From a virus: 37,601 nt of DNA. The stretch lies in the IMG/VR virus record IMGVR_UViG_3300044998_000961; one strand, written 5' to 3'. A model generated the notes under the pieces. It was not told the origin of the DNA and did not search any database. It saw only the letters and a list, made by a program, of their open reading frames with translations. The position numbers and the translations under genes are program-made. Shown one piece after another: positions 826 to 37,004 of this stretch (positions within the stretch are counted from its first letter, which is position 1; every line of letters begins with the position of its first letter).

Positions 826-2017
826 TCTCCTGGGCCAGAGCCTGAAATCGGTCGTTTCTGATGAGCTCGAGTCCATGGTCGCAGCGCAGGTGGAAGCGGC
901 TCTCAAGCAATTTGAAGACTCCGCCAAGGTTCGTGGCGCAGGCCTCGTGACTCCGGATGGAGGCACCGCAGACGCTGAAATGAAGAGCATGGCTGACTTC
1001 CTGACGGCCATCGCTCGCGGCGATGCGAAGCGGCTGACGCAGATCTACGGATCGAGCCAGATCGACGATCGCGGCGAAAAGAAGGCGCTCAACGAGCAGA
1101 CCGGCGGCGCTGGGGGGTGGACGGTTCCTCCGGAATTCAATAATCGGCTGTTGGAGCAAGCCGGAGAGACCAGCTTGATCGACCGGCTTCCGGCAGGGCG
1201 CCGCCCCATGGAAATGCCCATGTCGAGCCGAACGCTGGAAATGCCCATGCTGGATCAGTCGATCGCCCCAGCCGAAGGCGCGAGCGCGGCCGATGCTGGC
1301 GTGGTCGCGTACTGGACTGCGGAGGCGGGCAGCATCACGGAAACCGAACCAAAATTCAAGCGCTTGCAACTTGAGGCGCACAAGCTCGCCGGCTATACCG
1401 TGGCGAGTCAGGAGCTCAATAGCGACTCGGCGCAAGCGTTGGAATCGCTCCTCACGCGGCTCTTTGGCCGGGCGATCGGCAATCGCCGAAGCTACGCCTT
1501 TATGCGCGGCGATGGAGTCGGAAAGCCGCTTGGCGTGCGCAACGCCCCGGCGGCGATTGCCGTGACTCGCGCTGGGGGAGGCAATGTCGTTGACAAAGCC
1601 GACATCCTCGGCATGCTCGAAAAGCAAATCAATCCCGACAACGCGGTATGGCTGGCCCATCCGTTTTTGCGGTCAACGCTTGCCGATTTGCAAATCGGCA
1701 CGAACACGGCCATGGCCTGGGGGGACATCCGCAACGGATATCCAGCCACCCTCATGGGGGTGCCGATCCTGTTCGGCCAGCATATGTCGGCCCCTGGCAG
1801 CGCCTTCGATCTGGCATTGATCGACTGGTCGTATTATCTGATCGGCAATCGGGGCGGTACCGCGATTGCCATGTCGCCGCATGCGAAGTTTTTAACGGAT
1901 GAGCTCACCTGGCGCTTTACGCATCGGGTCGACGGGCAGCCCTGGGTGTCCAACAAAATGATGCTTGCTGATGGGGCCGGGTCGAATTACGTGTCGCCAT
2001 TTATCTATCTGAGCTAA
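803..2017 (+). CDS. Major capsid protein, HK97 fold
   Basis: 404 aa. A helical N-terminal delta-like segment is followed by GGWTVPPEF and a family-typical core. It directly follows the protease and has a gaagga RBS. Confidence 0.85.
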   Translation: MTTVIDYDLLGQSLKSVVSDELESMVAAQVEAALKQFEDSAKVRGAGLVTPDGGTADAEMKSMADFLTAIARGDAKRLTQIYGSSQIDDRGEKKALNEQTGGAGGWTVPPEFNNRLLEQAGETSLIDRLPAGRRPMEMPMSSRTLEMPMLDQSIAPAEGASAADAGVVAYWTAEAGSITETEPKFKRLQLEAHKLAGYTVASQELNSDSAQALESLLTRLFGRAIGNRRSYAFMRGDGVGKPLGVRNAPAAIAVTRAGGGNVVDKADILGMLEKQINPDNAVWLAHPFLRSTLADLQIGTNTAMAWGDIRNGYPATLMGVPILFGQHMSAPGSAFDLALIDWSYYLIGNRGGTAIAMSPHAKFLTDELTWRFTHRVDGQPWVSNKMMLADGAGSNYVSPFIYLS

Positions 2018-2078
2018 TGTCAGAGAGGATGGCTGTAGTGTGGGGGGAGCGATCCTCCCCTATCGAGGAAATTATTAT

Positions 2079-2531
2079 ATGCCAGCAGGAATGACCGAGG
2101 AAAGTGCCGTTGTTGGGCAGATCAGCCCGGCGAGCCGCACGCCGTCGACGACGTACTCAACAGTCGTAGATATGTCGCTCATTGGGCGACTTGTGGCTAC
2201 CGTGCTCGTGGGGGCCATGGGGGAGGGAGCCACGCTGGACGCCACATTCTATGGCAATACCGTCAATTCGACCAGCGGTGGCACCGCGATCACTGGCAAG
2301 AGCCTGGCCGCCGACACGTTCAGCGGCTCGGGCGATCAGAACGGAGTCGCGCTGATCGAAGTCACAAGCGAAGAAGTGGCCGCCCAGGGCTTTCGCTATG
2401 TGTTTCTTGACGTGACCACCACCACGGCGGCAATCGTGTATGGGGCCGTGCTCACGGCCTATCATACCCGCTACGCCAACGCCGCAACCGATCTGCCCGA
2501 TCTGGCTGCTGTTCGTGAGATCGTGTACTGA
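2079..2531 (+). CDS. Hypothetical head-associated protein (possible decoration protein)
   Basis: ATG 2079 has a gagga RBS; the ORF opens at GTG 2040. 150 aa, rich in S/T/G, between the capsid and connector genes. No family recognised. Confidence 0.4.
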   Translation: MPAGMTEESAVVGQISPASRTPSTTYSTVVDMSLIGRLVATVLVGAMGEGATLDATFYGNTVNSTSGGTAITGKSLAADTFSGSGDQNGVALIEVTSEEVAAQGFRYVFLDVTTTTAAIVYGAVLTAYHTRYANAATDLPDLAAVREIVY

Positions 2532-23232: not shown

Positions 23233-23279
23233 CATAAAGGAGCCGCCTCGGCCGTCGGCCGAGGCGGCTCCTTTATGCT
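23231..23279 (+). terminator. Perfect 23-bp stem-loop ending the rightward small-gene operon
   Basis: agcataaaggagccgcctcggcc-gtc-ggccgaggcggctcctttatgct. Confidence 0.65.
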
Positions 23280-23513
23280 CCCTCAGGAAGTGGCGCTTGC
23301 GTTTCGGCGGTGGTCGGGCGACCATAGATCGCCCAACACCACCGCCGACGAAGAGCATCAGGAGATCGCGCGGATCGGGCAATCGCTGCCTGCGCGATCC
23401 GCGCCGGAAGCGTCGTTCTCATCGCCCACATCCCTGGGAGGATGTGGGCGATTGCTTTCATCGCTGACGCGCTGCGGCCATTCCAGGCCGAGCGCGGCGT
23501 ACCGCACCGCTGC
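23238..23513. repeat. RHH-gene / bidirectional-terminator module, copy 1 (degenerate)
   Basis: About 275 bp aligns with 26299-26573 at an offset of about 3059-3061 bp. The RHH reading frame here has no proper start or stop. Confidence 0.85.
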
Positions 23514-23753: not shown

Positions 23754-24602
23754 TCATTCGCCTACCAGACAACTGACCGTACTGCCCAGCAACGGGCGGT
23801 AGATCGTGATCGTCTCGCCGGGTTGCGGCGCGGTCGCAGGCACCGCGCCGGCGAACTGATCTGGATGCATCAAATATTCGCATGGCATCCAGCCATGCTC
23901 CTCTCCCCACTCGTCGGCCCGAATGATAAATTGCTGCAAGGCCTCGTAGAGGCCCTCTTCGGTTTGGCGACGCAGCCAGATGACGTCGCCGTTCATCATC
24001 TGGTAGGCTTTTCCTACGCGCACGGCAGCAGCCGAGCGTTCCTTTGGCGTCAGCGGGCGCTCGACCAGGCACGTTTGTGCCCGGTGCATGAGGCGCAGCG
24101 CGGTTCGGAGATTGTCACGAACCGCCGTGCACGTTTGTTCACGGTACATTCGTTCCAGCGCGGTGCGATGCACCACGCGAGCGCCGAGATAATTGAGATC
24201 TTCGACAAAATAATCTTCGAAAGCACAGAACACTTTTACCACTTTGCCATTACTGGCATCGTGGTACAAGTCTGCCAGCGCGGACGCGCCCATTGTCCGC
24301 GCTTCGGCCTCCGCTTCCCCGATGTTGCCCGGATTGATGTTCCGGGCATACCACCAGTGACGGTCGCCCTCTGGTTGCTGCAAAAAGATGCCTGCCGCCT
24401 CGCCGGCGATCCGGCAGGCTATCTCCTGGCGCCATTCGAATGGCGCCAGGAGATCTAGCAGCCATGCGAGATCTAAGCAATCCGGGTGGTGATCCGCGAT
24501 TTCCTCGAGCGAGCGGGGCTCGTCCCCCGCCCACTCGAGAAACTCCTCAATCTCCTCTGGGCAGGCATTGTGGTTTTCTAGCCATGTTTGATCAATTTTC
24601 AT
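23754..24602 (-). CDS. MKID-family paralog P1 (long form, 282 aa), unknown function
   Basis: aaggagga RBS. It shares the N-terminal and C-terminal modules with the other family members. Confidence 0.8.
   Translation of the reverse strand: MKIDQTWLENHNACPEEIEEFLEWAGDEPRSLEEIADHHPDCLDLAWLLDLLAPFEWRQEIACRIAGEAAGIFLQQPEGDRHWWYARNINPGNIGEAEAEARTMGASALADLYHDASNGKVVKVFCAFEDYFVEDLNYLGARVVHRTALERMYREQTCTAVRDNLRTALRLMHRAQTCLVERPLTPKERSAAAVRVGKAYQMMNGDVIWLRRQTEEGLYEALQQFIIRADEWGEEHGWMPCEYLMHPDQFAGAVPATAPQPGETITIYRPLLGSTVSCLVGE
24421..24454. repeat. Perfect 34-bp palindrome inside P1
   Basis: ATCTCCTGGCGCCATTC|GAATGGCGCCAGGAGAT. It encodes LLAPFEWRQEI. Confidence 0.95.
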
Positions 24603-24668
24603 TGGTTTCCTCCTTGCCGCTTCGTGGGCGGCTGTGGCCGCCCACAGAAATGTTGAGGGCTAAATTCT

Positions 24669-25520
24669 TCATTCGCCTACCAGACAACTGACCGTACTGC
24701 CCAGCAACGGGCGGTAGATCGTGATCTCCTCGCCCGGTTGCGGCGCGGTCTCTTCGACCGCGCCGGCGAACTGATCTGGATGCATCAAATATTCGCATGG
24801 CATCCATGCATATTCGACATCCCACTCGTCGGCCCGAATGATAAATTTCTGCAAGGCCTCGTAGAGGCCCTCTTCGTTTTGGTGCCGCACCCAGAAAACG
24901 TCGTCGCCTATTAGATAGGCTTTCCCCACCCGCTCGGCTGCTGCCGAGCGCTCTTCCGGGGACAGCGGGCGCTCGACCGGGCACGTCTGCGCGTGCTCGA
25001 TGACGCGCAGCGTGGTTCGGAGATTGTCACGAATATCCGTGCGCAAACTGGCACGGTACGTTCGTCTCATCCAGATTCGGATGTTGTTATTATCCCGAAT
25101 CTCGCTATCGTCTTTTGTCTCGAGATCCTCGATAATCTCGAGCAAACCGTAGAGAACATCCTCCACGTCGCCATTACTGGCATCGTGGTACAAGTCCGCC
25201 AGCGTCAACGCGCCTATTTTCCGCGCTTCTGCCTCCGCTTCTGCGATGTTGCCCGGATTGATGTTCCAGGCAAACCGCTCGTATCCCACGGATTGCCGAA
25301 AAAAGATGCCTGCCGCATCGCCGGCGAGGCGGCAGGCTATGTCCATTCGAATATCGAATGGAGCGACCTTGTCTATGATCCATGCGATATCGAAGGAATC
25401 CGGGTGGTGCTCCGCAATCTCCTCCAGTGAGCGGGGTTCGTTCCCCGCCCAATCGAGAAACCGCACAATTCCTTCTAGGTACGCATTGTGTTGTTTGAGC
25501 CAGGTTCGATCGATTTTCAT
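24669..25520 (-). CDS. MKID-family paralog P2 (long form, 283 aa), unknown function
   Basis: First gene behind the promoter-leader cassette at 25521-25630. It has the family N- and C-modules. Confidence 0.8.
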   Translation of the reverse strand: MKIDRTWLKQHNAYLEGIVRFLDWAGNEPRSLEEIAEHHPDSFDIAWIIDKVAPFDIRMDIACRLAGDAAGIFFRQSVGYERFAWNINPGNIAEAEAEARKIGALTLADLYHDASNGDVEDVLYGLLEIIEDLETKDDSEIRDNNNIRIWMRRTYRASLRTDIRDNLRTTLRVIEHAQTCPVERPLSPEERSAAAERVGKAYLIGDDVFWVRHQNEEGLYEALQKFIIRADEWDVEYAWMPCEYLMHPDQFAGAVEETAPQPGEEITIYRPLLGSTVSCLVGE

Positions 25521-25590
25521 TGGTTTCCTCCTTGCCGCGCGATAGCGCGCGTGTGGCCCCCACGAGGGGGTGTTTGAATATCATGACGCA

Positions 25591-25619
25591 ATTATAGCAC
25601 AATCATAATGCAATGTCAA
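25591..25619 (-). promoter_or_regulatory. Perfect-consensus sigma-70 promoter (cassette copy a) driving P2 and P1
   Basis: Minus strand reads TTGACA (25619-25614), 17 nt, TATAAT (25596-25591). Confidence 0.8.
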
Positions 25620-25677
25620 CGGGTATTTTTATGACAAAACTGTCATCAAATAGTTCGATCAATTATCAAATTGCCTA

Positions 25678-25705
25678 TTGATCATAGCGAAAGTTGTGGT
25701 ATGAT
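25678..25705 (+). promoter_or_regulatory. Sigma-70 promoter with extended -10, driving the small acidic-protein / RHH operon
   Basis: TTGATC (25678-25683), 16 nt ending in TGG, TATGAT (25700-25705). Confidence 0.7.
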
Positions 25706-25709
25706 GTTA

Positions 25710-25731
25710 TTATCAATAATCCGATTGATAA
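25710..25731. promoter_or_regulatory. Operator-like inverted repeat overlapping the predicted transcription start
   Basis: TTATCAAT-aatccg-ATTGATAA begins 5 nt after the -10. A related pair, TTATCAA-8 nt-TTGATCA (25663-25684), overlaps the -35. Confidence 0.5.
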
Positions 25732-25746
25732 TGAAAGGAACCCACA

Positions 25747-25989
25747 ATGACCACCGTAACCATCCGCATCACCCGCGAACGCTTGGCGGCCATGGACGAC
25801 CACGAGATGGTCGTCTATGGAACCCCGAACACGTGGGAGCCCTATTGGGCCTCACGGCCAAGCTTTATGTATGACAAGTGCCTCGCAACGCCACGCGATT
25901 TCTATGAGTTTTACGATCTCGATCGTGAAGCCTGTGACGATGACGAGGATGAGATTCTCGAGTTGACGGTTGTCGTTGATGAGGAATAA
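25747..25989 (+). CDS. Small, strongly acidic hypothetical protein (80 aa)
   Basis: About 21 D/E against 7 K/R by my count. The C-terminus is REACDDDEDEILELTVVVDEE. First gene after the 25678 promoter. Confidence 0.55.
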   Translation: MTTVTIRITRERLAAMDDHEMVVYGTPNTWEPYWASRPSFMYDKCLATPRDFYEFYDLDREACDDDEDEILELTVVVDEE

Positions 25990-26049
25990 CGTCGATATGT
26001 CATGGAAGCGAGGGGGGGATACCCCCTCGCTTCCGCTAGGAGCAAAACC

Positions 26050-26271
26050 ATGAAATTGAACGTGAATCGCTATTACGATCTTACCTGGAATGCGGAGGAT
26101 CAAGAGGGGAAATGGACAAGCGATGATGAAGGCTGTCTCGTGCTCCTCTGCCAGGAGCACGGTGACTTGCTGGAAGACGCCGGCGAAACCCAGTGGGCCG
26201 GCAACGGCGACTATGGCCACCTGTGTCGCTGTGAGTATCCCGGCTGCCTCATCAATAATGGTGTCAAATGA
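26050..26271 (+). CDS. Small acidic Cys-rich hypothetical protein (73 aa)
   Basis: ATG 26050 has an aggag RBS. It has six Cys (CLVLLC, CRCEYPGC) and a net negative charge. ATGA overlap with the RHH gene. Confidence 0.55.
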   Translation: MKLNVNRYYDLTWNAEDQEGKWTSDDEGCLVLLCQEHGDLLEDAGETQWAGNGDYGHLCRCEYPGCLINNGVK

Positions 26272-26474
26272 CCGGGAATAAGCGCAGTGGCAATCGAGGG
26301 AGCCGCCGTGGCCGCCGGCTGCGGCGCTCCTTCACGCTCCCTCAGGAAGTGGCGCTTGCTTTTCGCTTGTGGTGTTGGGCGATCTATGGTCGCCCAACGA
26401 CACCCGAAGAAGAGCAGCAGGAGATCGCGCGGATCGTACAGGCAGCGATTGCCCAATCCGCGCCGGAAGCATAG
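26268..26474 (+). CDS. Ribbon-helix-helix (CopG/Arc-like) DNA-binding protein
   Basis: A basic N-terminus is followed by RSFTLPQEVALAFRLW (strand plus helix A) and PEEEQQEIARIVQAAIAQ (helix B). A terminator follows immediately. Confidence 0.55.
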   Translation: MTGNKRSGNRGSRRGRRLRRSFTLPQEVALAFRLWCWAIYGRPTTPEEEQQEIARIVQAAIAQSAPEA

Positions 26475-26573
26475 TCATCATCGCCCACATCCTCTCAGGG
26501 ATGTGGGCGATTTCTTTCATCGCTGACGCGCTGCGGCCATTCCAGGTCGAGCGCGGCGTACCGTACCGCTGCT
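26299..26573. repeat. RHH-gene / bidirectional-terminator module, copy 2 (the only copy with an intact RHH ORF)
   Basis: Aligns with 23238-23513. Its 3' part also recurs at 30551-30641 and 31899-32010. Confidence 0.85.
26482..26518 (+). terminator. Intrinsic terminator after the RHH gene
   Basis: cgcccacatcc-tctcag-ggatgtgggcg followed by atttctttc. Confidence 0.75.
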
Positions 26574-26640
26574 TCGCATTGCGGCGCTTCATCCCACCGC
26601 GAAAGCGTGTGGGCTTTCGCGCCAAGGTTTCTGTAAAAGA

Positions 26641-26670
26641 ATGCCACCGGCTCGCTTGAGCCGGTGGCAT
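26641..26670. terminator. Bidirectional stem-loop terminator downstream of the tRNA
   Basis: atgccaccggctc-gctt-gagccggtggcat. It has T-rich tails on both strands (ttgatttg on plus, tcttttac on minus). Confidence 0.7.
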
Positions 26671-26679
26671 TTGATTTGA

Positions 26680-26752
26680 AACGAGAGACGGGGTTCGAAC
26701 CCGCGACATGCACCTTGGTAAGGTGGTGCTCTACCAACTGAGCTACTCCCGC
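26680..26752 (-). tRNA. tRNA-Gly-like gene with the atypical anticodon ACC
   Basis: The minus strand reads GCGGGAG TA GCTC AGTTGGTA GAGC A CCACC TTACCAA GGTGC ATGTC GCGGG TTCGAAC CCCGT CTCTCGT T. The cloverleaf has U8, A14, G18G19, U33 and a T-loop TTCGAAC. The body is close to the E. coli tRNA-Gly(GCC) I recall. Deviations are A34, a C27-C43 mismatch, G1-U72 and G4-U69 pairs, and no encoded CCA. Confidence 0.7.
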
Positions 26753-26761
26753 AATGCCATT

Positions 26762-26790
26762 AGTATAGCATAGCTCGGTTGGGAAAGCAA
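26762..26790 (-). promoter_or_regulatory. Dedicated sigma-70-type promoter for the tRNA
   Basis: Minus strand reads TTGCTT (26790-26785), 17 nt, TATACT (26767-26762). The -10 ends 9 nt before the tRNA 5' end. Confidence 0.6.
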
Positions 26791-26891
26791 ATCGTTAGCT
26801 CGAAAACCCTTTCGGCAGGTGGATCTGCCGATCGGGGCAGGCTATCATGGTGCGGCGCACCTGAACAAATGCCAGGTGCGCCGCACTATCC

Positions 26892-27344
26892 CTATGCTTC
26901 GGGCACGCTTCGCAACGCCTCGCGGAACATTGTGTCGATTTGCTCCGGCACGCGGCCGTCTCTTGTGAAATAATTTACGTATGTGAACATACAGTTTCTT
27001 ATTCTGCCAGCGCTGGCAGAATCACCAAGCATTTTGAGGCCTTCCGTCAGGCATTTCCACTTGACGCCGGCTCTGGCGAGCCGCATATAATCTTTTTCGC
27101 CTACCGGCGGCCAATCGTACCGATTGAATTCGCCGGTCGCCGCGTTGACCATATCGCAGGCCAACGCCATTCGAATGTCGAATGGACAAAGGAGATCTAT
27201 CAGCCATGCGAGATCTTTCGCATCCGGGTAGTGATCCGCGATTTCCTCGAGTGAGCGGGGCTGCTCCCCCGCCCACTCGACAAACCGCGCAATCCTCTCT
27301 GGGCAGGCATTGTGGCTTTTTAGCCACGCTACATCGATTTTCAT
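26892..27344 (-). CDS. MKID-family paralog P3 (short form, 150 aa), unknown function
   Basis: ATG 27344 lies behind cassette copy b. It has the family N-module up to the palindrome, then unrelated sequence ending IDTMFREALRSVPEA. Confidence 0.75.
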   Translation of the reverse strand: MKIDVAWLKSHNACPERIARFVEWAGEQPRSLEEIADHYPDAKDLAWLIDLLCPFDIRMALACDMVNAATGEFNRYDWPPVGEKDYMRLARAGVKWKCLTEGLKMLGDSASAGRIRNCMFTYVNYFTRDGRVPEQIDTMFREALRSVPEA

Positions 27345-27413
27345 GTCATTCCTCCTTGCCGCGCGATAGCGCGCGTGTGGCCCCCACGAGGGGGTGTCTG
27401 ATATCATGACGCA

Positions 27414-27442
27414 ATTATAGCACAATCATAATTCAATGTCAA
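27414..27442 (-). promoter_or_regulatory. Perfect-consensus sigma-70 promoter (cassette copy b) driving P3
   Basis: Minus strand reads TTGACA (27442-27437), 17 nt, TATAAT (27419-27414). Confidence 0.8.
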
Positions 27443-27520
27443 TGGGTATTTTTTTACGTCGATATGTAATGGAAGCGAGGGGGGATACCCCCTCGCTTCG
27501 TTGTCCAGATGCGCCGCACC

Positions 27521-28000
27521 CTATGCTTTGGGCAGAGCAACGCTCCGCAACGCCTCGCGGAACATTGTGTCGATATGCTCCGGCACGTCTTTGTCAAATT
27601 TGCTGACGAATGTCAACAATGTCTCGAGGACGCGTCCTCGGGACGCTTCCTCGTAGACATAGATGAGATCCTCCGACGATGCTCGCCAATTGAGCGCAAA
27701 TTCCAGGGCTTCCCCGATGTTGCCCGGATTGATGTTCCGGGCAAACCACCAGTGGCGGTAGCCGTAGCCTGGTCGCCGCGAAAAGATGCCTGCCGCCTCG
27801 CCGGCGATCTGGCAGGTTACGGCCATTCGATATTCGAATGGAGCGACCTTTTCTATGAGCCATGCGAGATCGAAGGAATTCGCGTGGTGCTCCGCGATTT
27901 CCTCGAGCGAGCGGGGCTCGTCCCCCGCCCACTCAACAAACCGCGCAATCACCTCTGGGCACGCATCGTGGCTTTTTAGCCACGCTACATCGATTTTCAT
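27521..28000 (-). CDS. MKID-family paralog P4 (short form, 159 aa), unknown function
   Basis: ATG 28000 has an aaggagga RBS after the intercistronic hairpin at 28022-28043. It ends IDTMFREALRSVALPKA. Confidence 0.75.
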   Translation of the reverse strand: MKIDVAWLKSHDACPEVIARFVEWAGDEPRSLEEIAEHHANSFDLAWLIEKVAPFEYRMAVTCQIAGEAAGIFSRRPGYGYRHWWFARNINPGNIGEALEFALNWRASSEDLIYVYEEASRGRVLETLLTFVSKFDKDVPEHIDTMFREALRSVALPKA

Positions 28001-28057
28001 TCTTTTCCTCCTTGCCGCTTCGTGGGCGGCCACAGCCGCCCACAGAAATGTTGAGGG

Positions 28058-28870
28058 CTAAATTCCTCCTTCGCCTACCAAACAATTGAACGTCCTGCCC
28101 AGCAACGGGCGGTAGATCGTGACCATCTCGCCGGGTTGCGGCGCGGTCGAAGAGACCGCGCCGGCGAACTGATCTGGATGCATCAAATATTCGCATGGTT
28201 CCCATGCATATTCGACACCCCACTCGTCGGCAATCATAATAAATCGCCGCAAGGCCTCGTAGAGGCCCTCTTCGGTTTGGCGACGCAGCCAGATGACGTC
28301 GCCGTTCATCATCTGGTAGGCTTTTCCTACGCGCTCGGCTGCTGCCGCGCGTTCCTTTGGCGTCAGCGCCCGCTCGACCGGGCACGTTTGTGCCCGGTGC
28401 ATGAGTCGCAGTGCGCGTCGCAGCGCGGTTCGGAGATTGTCACGCACCTCGCGAGCGTCGATTGAATCGAGATCCACAAAATCTTCGAAAGCACAGAGCA
28501 CTTTCACCACGTTGCCATTACTGGCATCGTGGTACAAGTCCGCCAGCGCGGACGCTTTCATCTGCCGCGCTTCTGCCTCCGCTTCTGCGATGTTGCCCGG
28601 ATTGATGTTGAAGGCAAACCGCGCGTGGCGGTCGCCCTCTGGTTGCTGCAAAAAGATGCCTGCCGCCTCGCCGGCGACCTGGCAACCTAAGTCCATTCGA
28701 ATGTCGAATGGACAAAGGAGATCTAGCAGCCATGCGAGATCTTTCGCATTCGGATGGTACATAGCAATCTCCTCCAGCGAGCGGGGCTGCTCCCCCGCCC
28801 ACTCGGAAAATCGCGCAACCCCCTCTGGGCAGGCATCGTGTTGTTTGAGCCAGGTTTGATCGATCTTCAT
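28058..28870 (-). CDS. MKID-family paralog P5 (long form, 270 aa), unknown function
   Basis: It has the family N- and C-modules and follows the 28885..29193 gene in the same operon. Confidence 0.8.
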   Translation of the reverse strand: MKIDQTWLKQHDACPEGVARFSEWAGEQPRSLEEIAMYHPNAKDLAWLLDLLCPFDIRMDLGCQVAGEAAGIFLQQPEGDRHARFAFNINPGNIAEAEAEARQMKASALADLYHDASNGNVVKVLCAFEDFVDLDSIDAREVRDNLRTALRRALRLMHRAQTCPVERALTPKERAAAAERVGKAYQMMNGDVIWLRRQTEEGLYEALRRFIMIADEWGVEYAWEPCEYLMHPDQFAGAVSSTAPQPGEMVTIYRPLLGRTFNCLVGEGGI

Positions 28871-28884
28871 TCTTTTCCCCTTCC

Positions 28885-29193
28885 CTAAATTGAGCGCTCA
28901 ATAATTTCGCGCTCAATGATGTCTATAGCCAAGCTTTGACGCGGATCTTTTCTGTAATGAATGAGCAATTTTGCTAATTCACTGATTGATGCTTGTTCTA
29001 CAATAGAAACAAGCGAACCGTCTTTTGTTGGGTTTTTCCCCCGCTCCACGAGCGGAGAAGACTCCGCCGGAATTTCGATTTCCTGAAGAGCTCTATCAAC
29101 AATTTCGCATTCAATTGCCCGCAATCTTGCGAGACGATCTGGGTGCGAGCTATTCCACCAGTAGTCAAGTTGTTTGCCAAGCTCCTTGATCAT
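28885..29193 (-). CDS. Hypothetical protein (102 aa) in a visibly lower-GC segment
   Basis: ATG 29193 has an aaggagga RBS directly behind cassette copy c. Unrelated to the MKID family. AT-rich compared with its neighbours. Confidence 0.55.
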   Translation of the reverse strand: MIKELGKQLDYWWNSSHPDRLARLRAIECEIVDRALQEIEIPAESSPLVERGKNPTKDGSLVSIVEQASISELAKLLIHYRKDPRQSLAIDIIEREIIERSI

Positions 29194-29261
29194 TGGTTCC
29201 TCCTTGCCGCGCGATAGTGCGCGGGTGGCCCCCACGAGGGGGTGTCTGATATCATGACGCA

Positions 29262-29290
29262 ATTATAGCACAATCATGATGCAATGTCAA
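29262..29290 (-). promoter_or_regulatory. Perfect-consensus sigma-70 promoter (cassette copy c) driving 28885..29193, P5 and P4
   Basis: Minus strand reads TTGACA (29290-29285), 17 nt, TATAAT (29267-29262). Confidence 0.8.
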
Positions 29291-29440
29291 TGGGTATTTT
29301 TTTACGTCGATATGTAATGGAAGCGAGGGGGGTATCCCCCCTCGCTTCGTTGTCCAGGCGCCGCACCCTATGCTTTGGGCAGAGCAACGCTCCGCTCATG
29401 CCCGCGCGGCGGCCGCCGGCCGCCGCGCGGCAGATGCCCT

Positions 29441-30229
29441 TCATTCGCCTACAATGCAACTGACCGTACCGCCCAGCAACGGGCGGTAGATCGTGATCTC
29501 CTCGCCCGGTTGCGGCGCGGTCGAAGAGACCGCGCCGACGAACTGATCTGGATGCATCAAATATTCGCATGGCTCCCATGCATATTCGACCCCCCACTCG
29601 TCGGCGATATACGCCGACTTCCAAAGAACCTCGTAGAGGCCCTCTTCGGTTTGGCGACGTACCCAGAAAACGTCGCCGTCTAGCTCATAGGCTTTTCCCA
29701 CCCGCGCGGCAGCAGCCGCGCGTTCCGCTGGCGTCAGCGCCCGCTCGACCGGGCACGTCTGCGCGTGCTCGATGAGGCGCAGCGCGGTTCGGAGATTGTC
29801 ACGAACCACGCGAGCGCCGATTGACTCGAGATCCACAAAATCTTCAAAAGCACAGAACACTTTTACCACTTTGCCCTTAGCTGCATCGTGGTACAAGTCT
29901 GCCAGCGCGGACGCTCCCATTGTCCGCGCGTCGGACTCCGCTTCCCCGATGTTGCCCGGATTGATGTTGAAGACATACCGCGCGTGGCGGTCGCCCTCTG
30001 GTTGCCGCGAAAAGATCGCGGCCGCCTCGCCGGCGATCCGGCAGGCTATCTCCTGGCGCCATTCGAATGGCGCCAGGAGATCTAGCAGCCATGCGAGATC
30101 TTTCGCATCCGGGTGGTACATAGCAATCTTCTCGAGCGAGCGGGGAGTCTCCCCCGCCCACTCGACAAACCGCGCAATCCCCTCTGGGCAGGCGTTTTGG
30201 TTTTGTAGCCAGGTTCGATCGATCTTCAT
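29441..30229 (-). CDS. MKID-family paralog P6 (long form, 262 aa), unknown function
   Basis: ATG 30229 lies behind cassette copy d. It has the family N- and C-modules and contains the 34-bp palindrome at 30048-30081. Confidence 0.8.
   Translation of the reverse strand: MKIDRTWLQNQNACPEGIARFVEWAGETPRSLEKIAMYHPDAKDLAWLLDLLAPFEWRQEIACRIAGEAAAIFSRQPEGDRHARYVFNINPGNIGEAESDARTMGASALADLYHDAAKGKVVKVFCAFEDFVDLESIGARVVRDNLRTALRLIEHAQTCPVERALTPAERAAAAARVGKAYELDGDVFWVRRQTEEGLYEVLWKSAYIADEWGVEYAWEPCEYLMHPDQFVGAVSSTAPQPGEEITIYRPLLGGTVSCIVGE
30048..30081. repeat. Perfect 34-bp palindrome inside P6 (same sequence as 24421-24454)
   Basis: ATCTCCTGGCGCCATTC|GAATGGCGCCAGGAGAT. Confidence 0.95.
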
Positions 30230-30299
30230 GTCATTCCTCCTTGCCGCGCGATAGTGCGCGGGTGGCCCCCACGAGGGGGTGTCTGAATATCATGACGCA

Positions 30300-30328
30300 A
30301 TTATAGCACAATCATAATGCAATGTCAA
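30300..30328 (-). promoter_or_regulatory. Perfect-consensus sigma-70 promoter (cassette copy d) driving P6
   Basis: Minus strand reads TTGACA (30328-30323), 17 nt, TATAAT (30305-30300). Confidence 0.8.
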
Positions 30329-30386
30329 CGGGTATTTTTTTTACGTCGATATGTAATGGAAGCGAGGGGGTATCCCCCCTCGCTTC

Positions 30387-30536
30387 GTTGTCCAGATGCG
30401 CCGCACCCTATGCTTTGGGCAGAGCAACGCTCCGCTCATGCCCGCGCGGCGGCCGAGACCGACGCGCGGCAGATGCCCTTCATTCGCCTACCAAACAACT
30501 GACCGTACCGCCCAGCAACGGGCGGTAGATCGTGAA
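30387..30536 (-). pseudogene. Truncated seventh MKID-family cassette (3' end only)
   Basis: 30480-30535 encodes ...TIYRPLLGGTVSCLVGE plus a stop, with no upstream body. 30387-30436 matches the last codons and stop of short form P4. The same 3' flank follows the intact P6. Confidence 0.7.
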
Positions 30537-30550
30537 ATAATAATAGATGT

Positions 30551-30641
30551 AGGAGATCGCGCGGATCGCGCAATTGCCTCCTGCCCAATCCGCGCCGGAA
30601 GCGGAGTCATCATCGCCCACATCCTCTCAGGGATGTGGGCG
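30551..30641. repeat. RHH 3'-end / terminator module, copy 3 (remnant) just upstream of the Dam-like gene
   Basis: ggagatcgcgcggatcg...ccgcgccggaagc...cgcccacatcctctcagggatgtgggcg. It has no start or stop for the RHH frame. Confidence 0.85.
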
Positions 30642-30655
30642 TGAGATAAAAATGT

Positions 30656-31852
30656 ATGCTGATGGAGATAATTATGAGTCTATCAACCTATCAAAAATCG
30701 ATGTTTCCGTATTTCGGTGGCAAATCCTTGGCAGCGCCGCTTGTCTGGTCATTGCTTGGCGATCCTGCGCACTATGTTGAGCCTTTTTTTGGCAGCGGCG
30801 CGGTGCTGCTGTTTCGCCCGCATCCAGCAAATAGATCGAATTTTTCTGAAACGGTCAATGATTTCGACGGATTTATCGCCAATTTTTGGCGAGCTATGCA
30901 ATATGATGCGCAAGCTACCGTCGAATTTGCTTCGTGGCCGGTCGTCGAGGCTGAGCTGCACGCGCGGCATATTGCTATTATCCAATGGATGCGCGACGGC
31001 AATGCGGAACGGTTGGCTGGCGATGTGCAATATTATGATGCGCGGATTGCAGGGTATTGGTTGTACGGAATTTGCGCCTGGATCGGCTCTGGTTGGGGCC
31101 ACGAGCAGAGCGGCCCCTGGTGGCCTGATGCTGACGGTCGTCTGGTCAAGCGTTCGGGCAATTCAGGCGTGACTCGAAAACTACCACATGTGAGCGCCGA
31201 TGGTCAGGGCGTGCATCACTGCAAGGCACGTGAGCCAGGAGTGACTCGACAACTACCACGTGTGGGCGCCGATGGTCAGGGCGTCCATCACTGCAAGGCA
31301 CGTGAGCCAGGCGTGACGCGAAAACTACCACATCAGGATGAGGATTTAGCTGATATCATCGAGGCTGATTACGCGGCCTCAGACGAATACCATCCTATGA
31401 CGATGCCCGAAATTCGCCGGTGGGCCCATTGGCTCCAAGCGCGTATGCGTCATGTGCGCGTGGCGAACGGTGATTGGCAGCGGATTTGTAGCTCCAGCGT
31501 ATTGCGCCCAATGCCTAGGGGAGGCAAGCCCCATGTGTCGGGCATCTTCCTTGATCCGCCGTATAAACACAGCGAGAGATCAGCGCAATTGTATCGAGAG
31601 GATCAAGACATTGCATCTGACGTACGCGAATGGTGCCTACAAAATGGCAACAATTCTCAATATCGGATAGTGCTGGCGGGGTTCGCCGGCGAGGGACACG
31701 AAATATTAGAAAAAAATGGCTGGAGCGTGTATGAATGGTACGAACACCAATTGTTCAGGAGCGGCTATGGGCACCAGCAGCATCGAGAACGTCTGTGGGC
31801 GTCGCCGCATTGCTTGCTTCCAATGTTGCCGCTGGATGCGCTCTGGGAATAA
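30656..31852 (+). CDS. Dam-like (D12 class) N6-adenine DNA methyltransferase with an internal tandem repeat
   Basis: Motifs are FPYFGGK, YVEPFFGSGAV (AdoMet motif) and IFLDPPYKHS (DPPY catalytic motif). The likely start is ATG 30674, with GGAG 6 nt upstream. Lower GC than its surroundings. Confidence 0.8.
   Translation: MLMEIIMSLSTYQKSMFPYFGGKSLAAPLVWSLLGDPAHYVEPFFGSGAVLLFRPHPANRSNFSETVNDFDGFIANFWRAMQYDAQATVEFASWPVVEAELHARHIAIIQWMRDGNAERLAGDVQYYDARIAGYWLYGICAWIGSGWGHEQSGPWWPDADGRLVKRSGNSGVTRKLPHVSADGQGVHHCKAREPGVTRQLPRVGADGQGVHHCKAREPGVTRKLPHQDEDLADIIEADYAASDEYHPMTMPEIRRWAHWLQARMRHVRVANGDWQRICSSSVLRPMPRGGKPHVSGIFLDPPYKHSERSAQLYREDQDIASDVREWCLQNGNNSQYRIVLAGFAGEGHEILEKNGWSVYEWYEHQLFRSGYGHQQHRERLWASPHCLLPMLPLDALWE
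31166..31333 (+). repeat. In-frame 72-bp tandem repeat, 2.3 copies, inside the Dam-like gene
   Basis: Units start at 31166, 31238 and 31310 (partial). They encode GVTRKLPHVSADGQGVHHCKAREP, then GVTRQLPRVGADGQGVHHCKAREP, then GVTRKLPH. Confidence 0.9.
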
Positions 31853-31898
31853 TGCAATGCCCGCTGCATTATTCTCGTGGTGGCCGACGAGGGCACCA

Positions 31899-32010
31899 CG
31901 AGATCGCGCGGATCGTGCAGGAGGCAATTGCGCGATCCGCGCCGGAAGCGTCGTCATCATCGCCCACATCCTCTCAGGGATGTGGGCGCGTTTTTTCATC
32001 GCTGACGCGC
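31899..32010. repeat. RHH 3'-end / terminator module, copy 4 (remnant) just downstream of the Dam-like gene
   Basis: cgagatcgcgcggatcg...ccgcgccggaagcgtcgtcatcatcgcccacatcctctcagggatgtgggcg...catcgctgacgcgc. Confidence 0.85.
31961..31997 (+). terminator. Intrinsic terminator after the Dam-like gene
   Basis: cgcccacatcc-tctcag-ggatgtgggcg followed by cgttttttc. Confidence 0.8.
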
Positions 32011-32945: not shown

Positions 32946-33440
32946 ATGGCGCGGCCAAAGCTCAATGCCGACCAACGCATCCAGGTGATTGAGTGGCTCG
33001 CCGCTGGCTATGCGGGCGATCTTATTCGGCATTGGAGCAAGGAGCGGGGATGGCCAGAAATCAGCGATCAGGCGCTCAACTATTATCGCAAACGTCTGAG
33101 CAAGCCCATCGAAGCAGCCCGCAAGGCTCGCTTTGCGGCCGCGCTGAACACGGGACTCGCGCTGCGGGCCGAACGGGTGGCTCGCCTGGCCGCCCATGCC
33201 GATCGGCTTGAGATCATCAAATGGGAAGCGGACGAGAACGGGCGATTATGGAATGAGAAAGCATGGCGCGAAACGCTCGACGATATCGCCCGCGAGACCG
33301 GCGGCCGCCGTGCGGGAGTCTCCGTGAGCCTAGAGTCAGAGCTGGAGTCTTTTCTTGACCGAGTCCGCGAACAATTCGACCCGGATACCTACGCCCGGAT
33401 CGTTGCTCTCGCAGCTGGCAGCGCGACGGATTCAGCGTGA
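32946..33440 (+). CDS. terS: Terminase small subunit
   Basis: ATG 32946 has a ggagaaag RBS. The N-terminus looks like an HTH (ADQRIQVIEWLAAGYAGDLIRHW). It lies immediately upstream of the large terminase. Confidence 0.6.
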   Translation: MARPKLNADQRIQVIEWLAAGYAGDLIRHWSKERGWPEISDQALNYYRKRLSKPIEAARKARFAAALNTGLALRAERVARLAAHADRLEIIKWEADENGRLWNEKAWRETLDDIARETGGRRAGVSVSLESELESFLDRVREQFDPDTYARIVALAAGSATDSA

Positions 33441-33468
33441 TCCCGAGCTTGCGTCGCGCATCCGAGCA

Positions 33469-34896
33469 ATGAGCCCCAGCGCCCCAGCCGGGGCCGCGAT
33501 CCGTTGGTCGCCATTTGTTGGGCCGCAAACCATGGCCTTGCATAGCGAGGCCGATATTATCGGCTACGGCGGGGCCGCTGGAGGCGGCAAAACGGATCTG
33601 CTGATCGGGGCGGCACTGCTCATGCATTATCGGTCGATCATCTTTCGCCGCCAAGCCGAGCAGCTGCGCGATATTATCGAGCGTTCCAAAGAGATCATCG
33701 GATCGTCCGGGCGATTGAATGAGAATTATAAAATCTGGCGCGATCTGCCTGGCGGCCGCCGACTTGAATTTGGCGGGATGAAAAATGAGCACGACGTGAA
33801 TCGCTATCGCGGGCGAGCGCACGATCTCAAGGCGTTTGATGAGCTCACCGAATTTAGCGAAATGCAATTCAGAACGATTATTGCATGGAATCGTTCCGCT
33901 GAGGGGCATCGATGCCGCACGATCGCGGCGTTCAACCCGCCGACTTCGCAGTATGGCATGTGGGTGATCAAGTTTTTCGGCCCGTGGATCGACCCAGCCT
34001 ATAAAGGCGTCCGGGCGAAGCCCGGCGAACTGCGCTATTTCGCCATGGTCGACGGCAAAGAGATTGAGCGGCCCGGCCCGGACGCGTTTGAACACGGCGG
34101 GCGAATTATCCAACCAAAAAGCCGTACGTTCATCCCCGCGCGACTCGAGGATAATCCGGCCCTGCTGGCGAGCGGCTATGCGGCGACTCTTGATGCGCTG
34201 CCCGAGCCGCTCGCCACGGCGCTGCGTACGGGATCGTTTATCATGGCGCACGGGGCCGATCCCTGGGCCGTCATCCCCAGGGCCTGGGCTGAAGCGGCCC
34301 GGCGGCGAGGGATCGAGCGGGGCAATCCCACGGGGCCGATCTCCATGCTGGGAGTCGACGTTGCTCGGGGCGGCGACGACGAAACGGTGATTGCCCGGCG
34401 TCGCGGGACGGCCTTCGATCCGCTGCTGGTATGGCCTGGCAAAGAAACGCCGGATGGGCCGAGCGTGGCAACGCTGGTCATCCAGCAAATGGAGTCTCCC
34501 GAAGATCCGATCACGGTCGACGGGATCGGCGTAGGGGGGAGCGTGGTCGATCAGCTGGCCGCGATCGACGGCATCCGGATAACGGCGGCGATCGCGAGCA
34601 TGCGCAGCGATCCTACGGCCCGCGATCGGCGCGGCATGCTCAGCTTCAAAAATGATCGGGCGATGTGGTGGTGGCGTTTCCGTGAGGCGCTTGATCCGAA
34701 TCACGGCGATGAGATTGCCTTGCCCGATGACGACGCCTTGATCGAAGAGCTCTGCGCACCGCGATTCATGGTGCGATCGGGGACGATCCAGATCGAGGAA
34801 AAAGACGACATCAAAATGCGCTTGGGGCGCTCGCCGAATCGTGCAGATGCGCTGCTCTTAGCGCATCAAGAGAGCGCATCATTGATGCTATGGTGA
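33469..34896 (+). CDS. terL: Terminase large subunit
   Basis: Walker A is GYGGAAGGGKTD, Walker B is LKAFDELTEF, and the nuclease-domain motif is GVDVARGGDDETVIA. The start is uncertain because the ORF opens at 33355. Confidence 0.9.
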   Translation: MSPSAPAGAAIRWSPFVGPQTMALHSEADIIGYGGAAGGGKTDLLIGAALLMHYRSIIFRRQAEQLRDIIERSKEIIGSSGRLNENYKIWRDLPGGRRLEFGGMKNEHDVNRYRGRAHDLKAFDELTEFSEMQFRTIIAWNRSAEGHRCRTIAAFNPPTSQYGMWVIKFFGPWIDPAYKGVRAKPGELRYFAMVDGKEIERPGPDAFEHGGRIIQPKSRTFIPARLEDNPALLASGYAATLDALPEPLATALRTGSFIMAHGADPWAVIPRAWAEAARRRGIERGNPTGPISMLGVDVARGGDDETVIARRRGTAFDPLLVWPGKETPDGPSVATLVIQQMESPEDPITVDGIGVGGSVVDQLAAIDGIRITAAIASMRSDPTARDRRGMLSFKNDRAMWWWRFREALDPNHGDEIALPDDDALIEELCAPRFMVRSGTIQIEEKDDIKMRLGRSPNRADALLLAHQESASLMLW

Positions 34897-34901
34897 GGGA
34901 T

Positions 34902-37004
34902 ATGCTGAATAGCCCTGGCCCGATGAAAGCCATCCCCGTCGACCAATATCCCGAGGAATCATGGTGGGTTTTGGGGGGCCAAACGGGCATGCCCGATGGG
35001 GCGCTTTCGCCGCATTTGGCCTATAGCAAGGTCGGATTGTTGTATCGCGCCGTCGACATTCGGGCGAAAGCCGTATCGGCCTTTCCCTTGACGATCGAAC
35101 GCAATGGGCGCGATGTGACGAAGGACGACGAGACGCTGGCCTTCCGGCATGATCTTCGCCGGGCGCTTTGGCTCACCGAGGCGTCATTGTGTTTGTACGG
35201 CGCTTCCTACGCCTTGGCCCTCCACAACGGCCTGAAATGGCTGCAGCCGCAGACCATCACCCCCAACTATGATCCGAACGCTGCCGACGGGATCGCCGGA
35301 TGGACTCGCCGAGTCAACGGCAAAGAGATCCGCATCAAGCCGAAAGACATTACCTATACATGGCTGCCCAATTTGGCCGAAGAGATCGGCCCGGGCATTG
35401 CTCCTGCCGTCCCAGCGCTGGCCGCTGCAGGGGTGCTCCACAATCTTGATCGCTATTTGGCTGGCTATTTCGAGCGGGGCGCGATTCGGGCAACGCTGTT
35501 GATCGTCGAGGGCCAGCCGAGCAAAGACGAAAAGGAAAAACTTGAAAAATGGTGGAAGCGGATGCTGTCGGGAGTCAAAAAGGCCTACGAAACCGTGGCG
35601 CTACGATCGAACGTGAAGCCAGTGGTGATCGGCGATGGGCTGCAAGAAACGACGAATAAGGAACTGACCGATCAGCAACGCGAGGGTATTCTCATCCCCA
35701 TGGGGGTGCCGATTTCGATCGTGCTCTCGAATGCGTCGACGTTCGCGACCGCACAACAGGATTCGCTCAATTTCTACGATCTGACCGTATGCCCTCAGAT
35801 CGAGTTAATCGCCGAGTCGTTTGAACCATGGTTTCAAAAAACGGGGTATCGGGTGATTTTCCATCCGGAGCGGCTTGATGTGTACGTGGATCGACTGCTC
35901 CGCAAAGCCGATGCGCTGAGCAAAATCAGCGGCCCTCAGCCATTGCTTGATCGCGACGAGTCGCGGCGCATGCTGAATCTGCCGCCGTGGGCCGACGTCG
36001 CACCGCCCGAGCCACCGGCCCGGGCAGCATTGCCCGATCCGCCACGGAATTCGAACGCCCCCCAGGGCGAGGCGATCGACCAAACCAATACGCCAAGCAA
36101 CCCCCAGCCAACCAATACAAGCCCATCCGCCAAGCAACCCCCAGCCCCCAGCAAGGCGTACGATCTCGACCTGGCCCGATGGGAGAAAAAGGCCGCCAAG
36201 CGGATCGCCGCCGGGCGCTCGCCGGGGCCGTTTCAGAGCGATTCGATCCCCGTGGGCTTGCAGGCCGAAATCCGCTCCCTCCTCGATCAGGCCGAAGGGG
36301 CCGCCGATGTGGGCGCGATCTTCCGGGCAATCCATCGCGGCCCGGGGCAGGATCTGAGCGCAACGGAGCAATGGTTGTATGACGCGCTGGTCGCATTGTT
36401 TGCCCGATTCGAATCGGCGATCGTCGATCAGATTATCAGCGGGGGAGCGGTCGACCTCGCGCAGCTAGACTCGGCCATGCGGGACAAAATGACTGAGGCG
36501 ATGATCAACGTCATCATTGACAAGTTGATCGCGCTCCCCGCGACTCTCGATCTGCCAGCGGTCGACCCGGTGCAATTGCGGTTCGAGCCGATGGCCCTAT
36601 GGGCCGATCAATATATCGACCCCGTCATCGGAGGCATCCAACAAACCAATCGGCAATTGGTCGAGTCCGCCGTGCAGCTCTATCGCGCCACACCGGGCAT
36701 GACGCGAGCTCATGTCGAGGCGATGATCGCCGCACGATTTGGCGCGGCTCGGGCCGATATGATCGCGGTAACAGAGATCACGCGGGCGCAAAGCCTGGCA
36801 ACCCGCTACTATCAGGAGTATCTCCGCCGGGCCGGGATCACCATGGTACGTGTTTGGCGAACAAACCGCGATGATCTCGTGTGCGCCGTTTGTGGCCCGC
36901 TCAATGGCAAGCCCGAGTCCGCATGGGCCGATCGCTATCCGAACGGCGCCCCGGCCCATGCCGGGTGCCGCTGTTCGCAAACGCTTCAGCTGGAGTCCGA
37001 ATAA
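34902..37004 (+). CDS. Portal protein fused to a MuF / SPP1 gp7-like head morphogenesis domain
   Basis: It follows terL. The N-terminal 370 aa or so are portal-like. A P/N/Q-rich linker leads to a C-terminal domain with ITRAQSLATRYY...VWRTNRDDLVCAVCGPLNGK...HAGCRCS, the MuF signature. An alternative ATG lies at 34890. Confidence 0.75.
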   Translation: MLNSPGPMKAIPVDQYPEESWWVLGGQTGMPDGALSPHLAYSKVGLLYRAVDIRAKAVSAFPLTIERNGRDVTKDDETLAFRHDLRRALWLTEASLCLYGASYALALHNGLKWLQPQTITPNYDPNAADGIAGWTRRVNGKEIRIKPKDITYTWLPNLAEEIGPGIAPAVPALAAAGVLHNLDRYLAGYFERGAIRATLLIVEGQPSKDEKEKLEKWWKRMLSGVKKAYETVALRSNVKPVVIGDGLQETTNKELTDQQREGILIPMGVPISIVLSNASTFATAQQDSLNFYDLTVCPQIELIAESFEPWFQKTGYRVIFHPERLDVYVDRLLRKADALSKISGPQPLLDRDESRRMLNLPPWADVAPPEPPARAALPDPPRNSNAPQGEAIDQTNTPSNPQPTNTSPSAKQPPAPSKAYDLDLARWEKKAAKRIAAGRSPGPFQSDSIPVGLQAEIRSLLDQAEGAADVGAIFRAIHRGPGQDLSATEQWLYDALVALFARFESAIVDQIISGGAVDLAQLDSAMRDKMTEAMINVIIDKLIALPATLDLPAVDPVQLRFEPMALWADQYIDPVIGGIQQTNRQLVESAVQLYRATPGMTRAHVEAMIAARFGAARADMIAVTEITRAQSLATRYYQEYLRRAGITMVRVWRTNRDDLVCAVCGPLNGKPESAWADRYPNGAPAHAGCRCSQTLQLESE

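Follow-up and report, generated by a model that had tools for sequence, protein, structure and literature searches.

The closest described relatives of the locus reported here belong to T4-type phages, whose hyperplastic regions contain PeSL cassettes that flank ORFans (PMC2839356; PMC4122927; Arbiol, Comeau et al. 2010, 2014). Each such cassette combines a polyG/polyC stem-loop with a strong promoter of sigma-70-like type whose -35 element is preceded by an AT-rich tract (PMC2839356). T4 and T6 are further known to amplify anti-defence genes under selection (PMC9391042, PMC13096335), as exemplified by the 'genomic accordion' through which tifA is amplified against ToxIN (PMC9391042) and by the SegB-driven amplification that includes a tRNA (PMC13096335). 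Accessory early regions with promoter/stem-loop cassettes and the amplification of accessory genes are, then, of an already known kind. The IMG/VR virus record IMGVR_UViG_3300044998_000961 (37,601 nucleotides; this whole stretch of DNA is referred to as the window) carries between positions 23,754 and 30,536 an array of six paralogous minus-strand genes, designated A to F, behind repeated promoter cassettes (Table 1). The anatomy of the array, its repeats, its recombination signal, its selection pattern and its variation between phages can be followed directly in the DNA. New in this locus are the protein family and the fold of its N domain, the presence of PeSL-like cassettes in a small phage outside the T4 type, and a natural six-copy array of diverged members.

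The window represents a complete and circular phage genome of approximately 37,474 bp, as its ends overlap by 127 nt. All six genes were confirmed as open reading frames (ORFs) with ATG starts and aligned together as one family, as had been proposed in a sequence-only reading of the window. Their combined coding length of 4,236 nt, which agrees with the earlier figure of about 4.2 kb in a 37.5-kb phage, amounts to 11% of the genome. An assembly artefact was considered as the source of the array and rejected, because a different sample yielded contigs that match the window at 100% identity over positions 26161-28788 and 24437-25915. The third codon position is the most variable among the copies, which supports the reading frame, and the six copies, like those on variant contigs, are full open reading frames with neither internal stops nor frameshifts.

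The proteins of this family are composed of two modules, each of which is also found separately: an all-helical N module of approximately 160 amino acids (aa) and an optional C module, a small β domain of approximately 90 aa. The four long copies (262-283 aa) share 66-78% protein identity among themselves, and the short copies C and D, which have just the first 150 or so residues in common with them, are 45-55% identical to the first long copy. The family alignment bears out the N-terminal motif, the C-terminal module of the long copies and the ending IDTMFREALRSV of the short copies as the sequence-only reading had written them. That reading had also held the central segments to be unrelated between copies, which proved incorrect: E, F and A are 81-92% identical there at the DNA level, and the segments are better described as variable with insertions and deletions, B being divergent and A and B carrying an insertion of 22-27 aa. 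The truncated extra copy that had been noticed is real but tiny, limited to 17 codons and the 3′ flank. By tblastn it is 82-94% identical to the long copies of the window over positions 30483-30533 (67-94% over all family queries), and it constitutes the edge of a 300-nt duplicated block, 29197-29496 versus 30234-30535, of 95% identity. Invariant residues of the family are mostly Trp, Leu, Ala, Phe, Pro and Gly at core, largely hydrophobic positions, and the alignment displays no conserved cluster of catalytic type, in keeping with the earlier failure to see a catalytic motif. The long forms are acidic, with isoelectric points (pI) of 4.7-5.0 and net charges of -12 to -23. Long and short forms alike are hydrophilic (grand average of hydropathy, GRAVY, of -0.2 to -0.4), with no membrane segments or signal peptides visible.

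The AlphaFold (AF2) model of the short form D reveals a compact ten-helix domain, modelled at a predicted local distance difference test (pLDDT) score of 92.2 and a predicted template modelling (pTM) score of 0.87. The model of the long form E (pLDDT 75.6) comprises a helical region (aa 1-162), a linker and a small β domain (aa 184-241), and the C domain is modelled at pLDDT 50-85. Foldseek returned nothing significant from the PDB for the D model, which represents the N domain (best E 1.6; TM-score at most 0.25), and nothing significant from the PDB and BFVD for the full-length E model, among whose BFVD matches are a few unnamed phage proteins of 150-180 aa (probability 0.96; TM-score 0.45-0.53). 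The best PDB match of the C domain by Foldseek is SmAP1, an Sm-like protein, at a weak and not significant E of 0.68 (probability 0.33). By profile search, residues ~83-135 of the N domain resemble a single armadillo repeat unit, with matches to designed armadillo proteins (E 0.004, the sum of four repeat matches of about 8 bits each to that single repeat) and to FliG (E 0.8), and a stray CNOT1_HEAT match was obtained with one family member (E 0.2). With the pLDDT 92 N-domain model, Foldseek found no armadillo/HEAT-like helical repeat scaffold. The armadillo-repeat and Sm-like resemblances are weak leads only.

The family had been described as unrecognised, and it has no match in Pfam, PHROGs, NCBIfam, PADLOC or PDB sequences. 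No curated cut-off was passed in the first four of these libraries, where the best PHROG matches (E 0.005-0.02) involved one member only, and no DNA-binding or RNA-binding family was matched in the profile libraries searched. When the short form was searched by tblastn with E allowed up to 10, only chance-level matches to P1 DarB (E 5) appeared; as these are not collinear with weak PHROG matches to large methyltransferase proteins (phrog_21007 and phrog_1685), they were dismissed as noise. The array matched none of 50,697 phage records by megablast or tblastn, and no family relatives turned up in IMG/VR, in GTDB genomes or among JGI metagenome contigs when these were scanned. The profile and Foldseek searches, which had been suggested as a check, returned no housekeeping family, and the homologues that were found are not structural or replication genes.

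These homologues are few. A word-indexed search of 5.8 billion proteins recovered 11 relatives, an exhaustive HMMER profile search of 1.84 billion representatives recovered four proteins only, and a second profile search added P0014. The family has approximately 15 relatives in all, two of which (P0001 and P0003) were called from an internal Met. They originate from the JGI sample series Ga0484959-61, except for P0013, which is known from a Logan run only; P0014 occurs in a Logan run as well. The N-only forms are C, D, P0009, P0012 and P0014, the last of which looks like a truncated long form because it retains the linker HGAQTC...RVG. The C module stands alone in P0013, a protein of 118 aa (96% probability by hhalign) that found itself only when used as a query. 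Its gene lies two genes downstream of a 320-aa actin/ParM-like ORF (genes at 850-1812 and 2018-2374 of contig L004) bearing the motifs DIGN... and HDMGGGT, a ParM reading made by eye only, and the contig may belong to a plasmid or phage-plasmid.

The relationships among the copies bear a clear imprint of recombination. The mosaic or gene-conversion pattern put forward by the sequence-only reading is upheld by a permutation test, in which the runs of shared polymorphism exceed chance. Between A and F, 29 polymorphic sites in a row agree (aa 43-68), and between A and E the number is 24 (aa 209-237), runs that were reached in none of 2000 permutations for either pair, and E and F share a run of 15 sites; all three pairs give p = 0.002 or lower. 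Over the last 26 codons, which lie within the duplicated cassette block, the synonymous rate (dS) is just 0.09, and the 3′ ends are homogenized at the DNA level. The pairwise ratio of non-synonymous to synonymous rates (dN/dS) among the long copies is 0.55-0.68. It falls to 0.35-0.37 in aa 1-40 and 201-240, where dS is high (0.48), a combination that signifies constraint on the protein in these regions, and it rises to 0.9-1.1 in aa 41-80 and 121-150. A diversity-generating retroelement was rejected as the origin of this diversity, as no reverse transcriptase was found among the ORFs scanned and the differences between copies are not adenine-specific, involving all four bases roughly according to composition.

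The repeats that carry the regulatory regions of the array extend over 200-300 nt at 95-96% identity. Sites within one mismatch of TTGACA-N17-TATAAT number seven in the genome against 0.04 expected by chance, all of them within 19.9-30.4 kb, and four of the five perfect (12/12) sigma-70 promoters of the genome drive the array, each with a TG extension. Across the four aligned cassettes (P1 to P4) approximately 130 nt from the A-tract to the Shine-Dalgarno sequence are invariant. Along the direction of transcription, the cassette presents a GC hairpin, an A7-8 tract situated 6 nt upstream of the -35 element (four of four cassettes), the -35 and extended -10 elements, a 5′ untranslated region (UTR) of approximately 70 nt holding two small hairpins, and AAGGAGG placed 5-7 nt before the ATG (again four of four). 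The GC hairpin, GAAGCGAGGGGG(G)-ATA/TAT-CCCCCCTCGCTTC, has a 12-bp stem (-31 kcal/mol for an 81-nt stretch, z = -4.3) with arms that read GAAGCGAGGGGG-loop-CCCCCTCGCTTC in the direction of transcription; it is present in three of the four cassettes, P4 being the exception, and a fourth copy resides between the plus-strand genes p80 and p73. Cassette P4 diverges from the operon to which these two genes belong. Within operons, the E-D spacer (28001-28057) is homologous to the B-A spacer, and both have a 9-bp hairpin followed by an identical Shine-Dalgarno motif. The genes had been thought to be individually promoted, but four promoters serve the six family genes and one unrelated ORF, orf103, and the predicted transcription units are P1>F; P2>orf103>E>D; P3>C(>tRNA-Gly); and P4>B>A. 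Consensus promoters of host type most likely mark immediate-early genes read by the host RNA polymerase, and immediate-early expression of the array is suggested by the combination of consensus sigma-70 promoters with a sigma factor encoded by the phage itself.

The parallels to PeSL are extensive. In both cases a repeated intergenic unit combines a promoter, an AT tract, a polyG...polyC stem-loop and a Shine-Dalgarno sequence, and in both it flanks non-essential ORFans in a variable region where cassette-sized insertions and deletions distinguish close relatives. The phage of the window is, however, no T4-type myovirus, with a genome of about 37.5 kb and a terminase that shares approximately 45% identity with its counterparts in BPP-1-like and Limnohabitans phages. 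Its repeats are longer and more uniform than those of PeSL, and its cargo is one amplified family, whereas that of the T4-type phages consists of unrelated ORFans. In addition, the lone deletion breakpoint, seen in the variant L003 and on short contigs only, falls where D and C are homologous at their 3′ ends and not in a cassette. By sequence match the cassettes are PeSL-like, yet lie outside the described T4-type set. Searches for the promoter cassette in JGI metagenome contigs and IMG/VR found none.

Comparison with co-occurring phages demonstrates that the array varies in both copy number and alleles. Variant L003, approximately 90% identical in the flanks, is without P3, gene C and the tRNA-Gly; a D-like gene joins the 3′ flank of C there and continues into position 26558, and the difference amounts to a deletion or a duplication across the 3′ ends at which C and D are homologous. 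At the B position, the window, L003 and L009 have alleles that share no more than 56-63% protein identity beside a p80 flank that retains 86-90% DNA identity, and the F- and E-position alleles are 93% and 85% identical. In an otherwise unrelated 41-kb phage (L005/L006), the family is single-copy behind one sigma-70-like promoter. Homologues of p80 (59% aa identity) and p68 (75% nt identity) immediately precede the family gene there and share its strand. Thus p80, p68 and the N-domain gene keep together, which suggests that they are functionally linked.

The reading to which an even chance can be given is that the paralogs are early, non-enzymatic host-interaction proteins functioning in anti-defence or takeover. 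The host-interaction proposal made earlier is partly supported on indirect signs, and it fits because the promoters match the sigma-70 consensus perfectly, evolution is fast, copy number and alleles vary, the spread is narrow with a single copy in an unrelated phage, and a catalytic motif is absent. The predicted early strong expression, the constrained N-terminus beside fast-evolving helices, the sporadic horizontal spread and the cost of 11% of the genome also fit host binders better than the rivals. Within the circular genome of about 37.5 kb, the array would constitute a hyperplastic block of immediate-early genes, amplified to six copies via unequal homologous recombination at the conserved gene ends and near-identical cassettes, with gene conversion and allele exchange continuing to reshuffle the copies. 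Host RNA polymerase would transcribe them strongly right after infection, before the phage sigma factor takes over, and the soluble acidic products would act as stoichiometric binders of variable host targets in defence or takeover. The conserved N-terminal 40 residues would then provide the common function and the fast-evolving helices the specificity. Both the early timing and the role as binder or anti-defence protein are what we infer from these features.

Among proteins with such roles, Ocr and ArdA are acidic early anti-restriction proteins, and the family resembles them in being putatively early, soluble, acidic and devoid of an enzymatic motif, in a phage that has two DNA methyltransferases. 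There is, however, no sequence or fold similarity to either, the negative charge of the window proteins is moderate, and nothing points to DNA mimicry. The T4/T6 accordion offers a likeness of another kind, in that an early accessory gene is multiplied in tandem through recombination within a packaging-limited genome and a tRNA is present in the amplified region. The T4/T6 repeats are nevertheless recent, identical, obtained in the laboratory and concerned with a gene of known target, whereas the copies in the window are old, diverged (45-78% protein identity to the first copy) and fixed in nature.

Several considerations weigh against a role in host interaction. The raised dN/dS could mean relaxed constraint on redundant copies and not an arms race; the comparative data consist of a few short contigs from one metagenome project; promoter activity and timing are deduced from consensus matches alone; the GC hairpins are without a U-run on the transcribed strand, so that termination is only putative; and neither the libraries nor Foldseek revealed any sequence or fold similarity to known anti-defence, takeover or exclusion proteins.

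It is unlikely that the N domain is a new fold serving as a multi-allelic anti-defence scaffold, in which each paralog or allele neutralizes another host immune variant and the cassettes swap alleles and a decoy tRNA between co-infecting phages in an integron-like manner; were this true, cassette shuffling would extend well beyond the T4-type phages. A function in rivalry among phages, each copy blocking a different competitor and not a host defence, by means of superinfection exclusion or a defence encoded by the phage, would draw on the same signs as anti-defence (promoters of constitutive type, hypervariable alleles and variation in copy number) and on the moron-like insulation of the genes by hairpins. 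We consider it improbable, as PADLOC gave no match, the proteins are acidic and hydrophilic with no membrane segments or signal peptides in view, and the scanned ORFs included neither an integrase nor a repressor, so that a prophage stage in which exclusion would pay is not evident.

The paralogs might alternatively regulate or support the programme of their own phage as transcription, anti-sigma, RNA-binding or replication-accessory proteins, possibly together with p68 and p80. The retention of p80, p68 and N-domain genes side by side in an unrelated phage, the switch of sigma factors by the phage and the faint resemblance of the C domain to Sm-like small barrels would all agree with such a role. 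It is made doubtful by the variation in copy number and by alleles that differ by about 40%, where core regulators are normally single-copy and conserved, and by the absence of a match to any DNA- or RNA-binding family, the Foldseek E of 0.68 being not significant. Quite improbable is the view that the array is largely a side effect of cassettes prone to recombination, its copies being redundant or decaying passengers of little function. The relic copy, a degenerate copy of p68, the long near-identical repeats, the gene conversion and the fairly high overall dN/dS would be expected of such passengers, but the intact frames of the six copies and of those on variant contigs would not, nor would the clear purifying selection in aa 1-40 and 201-240 despite a dS of 0.48, and 4.2 kb of junk is improbable where packaging limits the genome to 37.5 kb. 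Finally, the products are acidic, small, diversified and multi-copy, as might suit proteins that are carried inside the virion and leave it together with the DNA, for which the T4 internal proteins provide a comparable case, but it is very improbable that they are so delivered, as the genes lie on the strand opposite to the structural block behind sigma-70 promoters, virion proteins are normally late, and no PHROG structural family was matched apart from a single stray hit (E 0.62) with one member.

If the paralogs are indeed host-interaction proteins, the array would represent a natural, long-lived and diverged counterpart to the laboratory amplifications of T4 and T6 against defences, and a costly one, since 11% of a very small genome is given to it. 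It would also imply that cassettes of the PeSL type, described so far for T4-type myoviruses, organize the early regions of unrelated small phages. The N domain, with a confident model and no relative in the PDB, presents a clean target for structural studies and partner discovery. The generality of these implications is limited by the very narrow distribution of the family, which comes from one environment.

Table 1. Positions of the array, its cassettes and other features of the window; the last two rows give positions on contig L005
Feature	Position	Strand	Description
Major head protein	803-2017	+	PHROG match
Head-tail adaptor		+	PHROG match
Major-tail-protein		+	weak PHROG match
Tail-needle-like protein		+	PHROG match
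RuvC-like resolvase, DnaC-like loader, DNA methyltransferase, sigma factor	15.9-19.8 kb	-	PHROG matches
Degenerate second p68 copy	23239-23513	+	with terminator hairpins; N-terminus and stop codon lost
Paralog A	23754-24602	-	long, 282 aa; second gene of P4 operon
B-A spacer	24603-24668	-	stable 9-bp hairpin and AAGGAGG
Paralog B	24669-25520	-	long, 283 aa; first gene of P4 operon
Cassette P4	25521-25632	-	promoter 25619-25591; drives B and A; without upstream GC hairpin
p80-p73-p68 operon	25747-26474	+	
p80	25747-25989	+	very acidic, pI 4.1
p73	26050-26271	+	
p68	26268-26474	+	Arg-rich N-terminus (GNKRSGNRGSRRGRRLRR)
tRNA-Gly	26680-26752	-	anticodon ACC; downstream of C, in segment absent from L003
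Paralog C	26892-27344	-	short, 150 aa; most divergent copy; behind P3
Cassette P3	27345-27499	-	hairpin 27472-27499; promoter 27442-27414; drives C, probably tRNA-Gly
Paralog D	27521-28000	-	short, 159 aa; N domain only; third gene of P2 operon
Paralog E	28058-28870	-	long, 270 aa; second gene of P2 operon
orf103	28885-29196	-	unrelated ORF between P2 and E
Cassette P2	29197-29348	-	hairpin 29320-29348; promoter 29290-29262; drives orf103, E and D
Paralog F	29441-30229	-	long, 262 aa; N helical and C β domain; sole gene behind P1
Cassette P1	30230-30386	-	12-bp GC hairpin 30359-30386; promoter TTGACA-17-TG.TATAAT 30328-30300; A-tract; conserved 5′ UTR with two small hairpins; AAGGAGG
Seventh-copy relic	30459-30535	-	last 17 codons, stop codon and 3′ flank; tblastn and repeat comparison
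Partial p68 copies	30551-30641 and 31883-32010		
Second methyltransferase, Dam-like	30656-31852		past the array; PHROG match, also Pfam PF02086
TerL	33355-34896	+	PHROG match
Portal	34890-37004	+	PHROG match
p80 homologue (L005)	1819-2118		59% identity; directly upstream in single-copy neighbourhood
p68 homologue (L005)	2096-2314		highly conserved in unrelated phage

The remainder of the genome was placed by PHROG matches to the scanned ORFs (Table 1). The best matches of TerL are found in BPP-1-like, Limnohabitans and Acidovorax phages at 42-45% identity, relatives that hint at a betaproteobacterial host. Among the genes that accompany the array, p68 is represented repeatedly: its 3′ end and terminator hairpin recur four times and bracket the paralogs. 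Neither p68 nor p80 has a Pfam or PDB sequence match, and the impression that p68 might be a ribbon-helix-helix or arginine-rich-motif protein is unsupported. The tRNA-Gly is very similar to bacterial tRNA-Gly(GCC), yet its position 34 is an A, an uncommon base there in bacteria, and it might serve as a replacement or decoy against anticodon nucleases. orf103, for which the library searches gave no family match, looks like a recently acquired foreign ORF that uses cassette P2, because its GC content is low (44.9% versus 59.2% for the genome).

The hairpins of the region display a peculiarity of their own. In at least five hairpin families, the copies agree in stems and flanks but have loops or interiors that are exact reverse complements of one another, the flipped interiors including CCATAGA/TCTATGG, TGTG/CACA, ATA/TAT and interiors of 21 nt. 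The flipped pairs are located at 23316-23334/26377-26395, 23368-23404/26427-26463, 23423-23450/26482-26509, 30559-30595/31906-31942, 24624-24645/28022-28043 and 27472-27499/30359-30386. A PeSL-like hairpin is likewise flipped between the window and the 96%-identical variant L008 (216-243), and the flipping may accordingly be recent. These loop inversions look like a flip-flop at palindromes that could proceed via template switching or intra-hairpin recombination.

The Dam-like methyltransferase gene beyond the array features an internal repeat. The match of its product to the D12 methyltransferase family is limited to the first 85 or so residues, and the middle of the ORF (31164-31333) contains two full 72-nt tandem repeats together with the first 26 nt of a third unit, which encode 24-aa units of the form GVTRKLPH..GQGVHHCKAREP.

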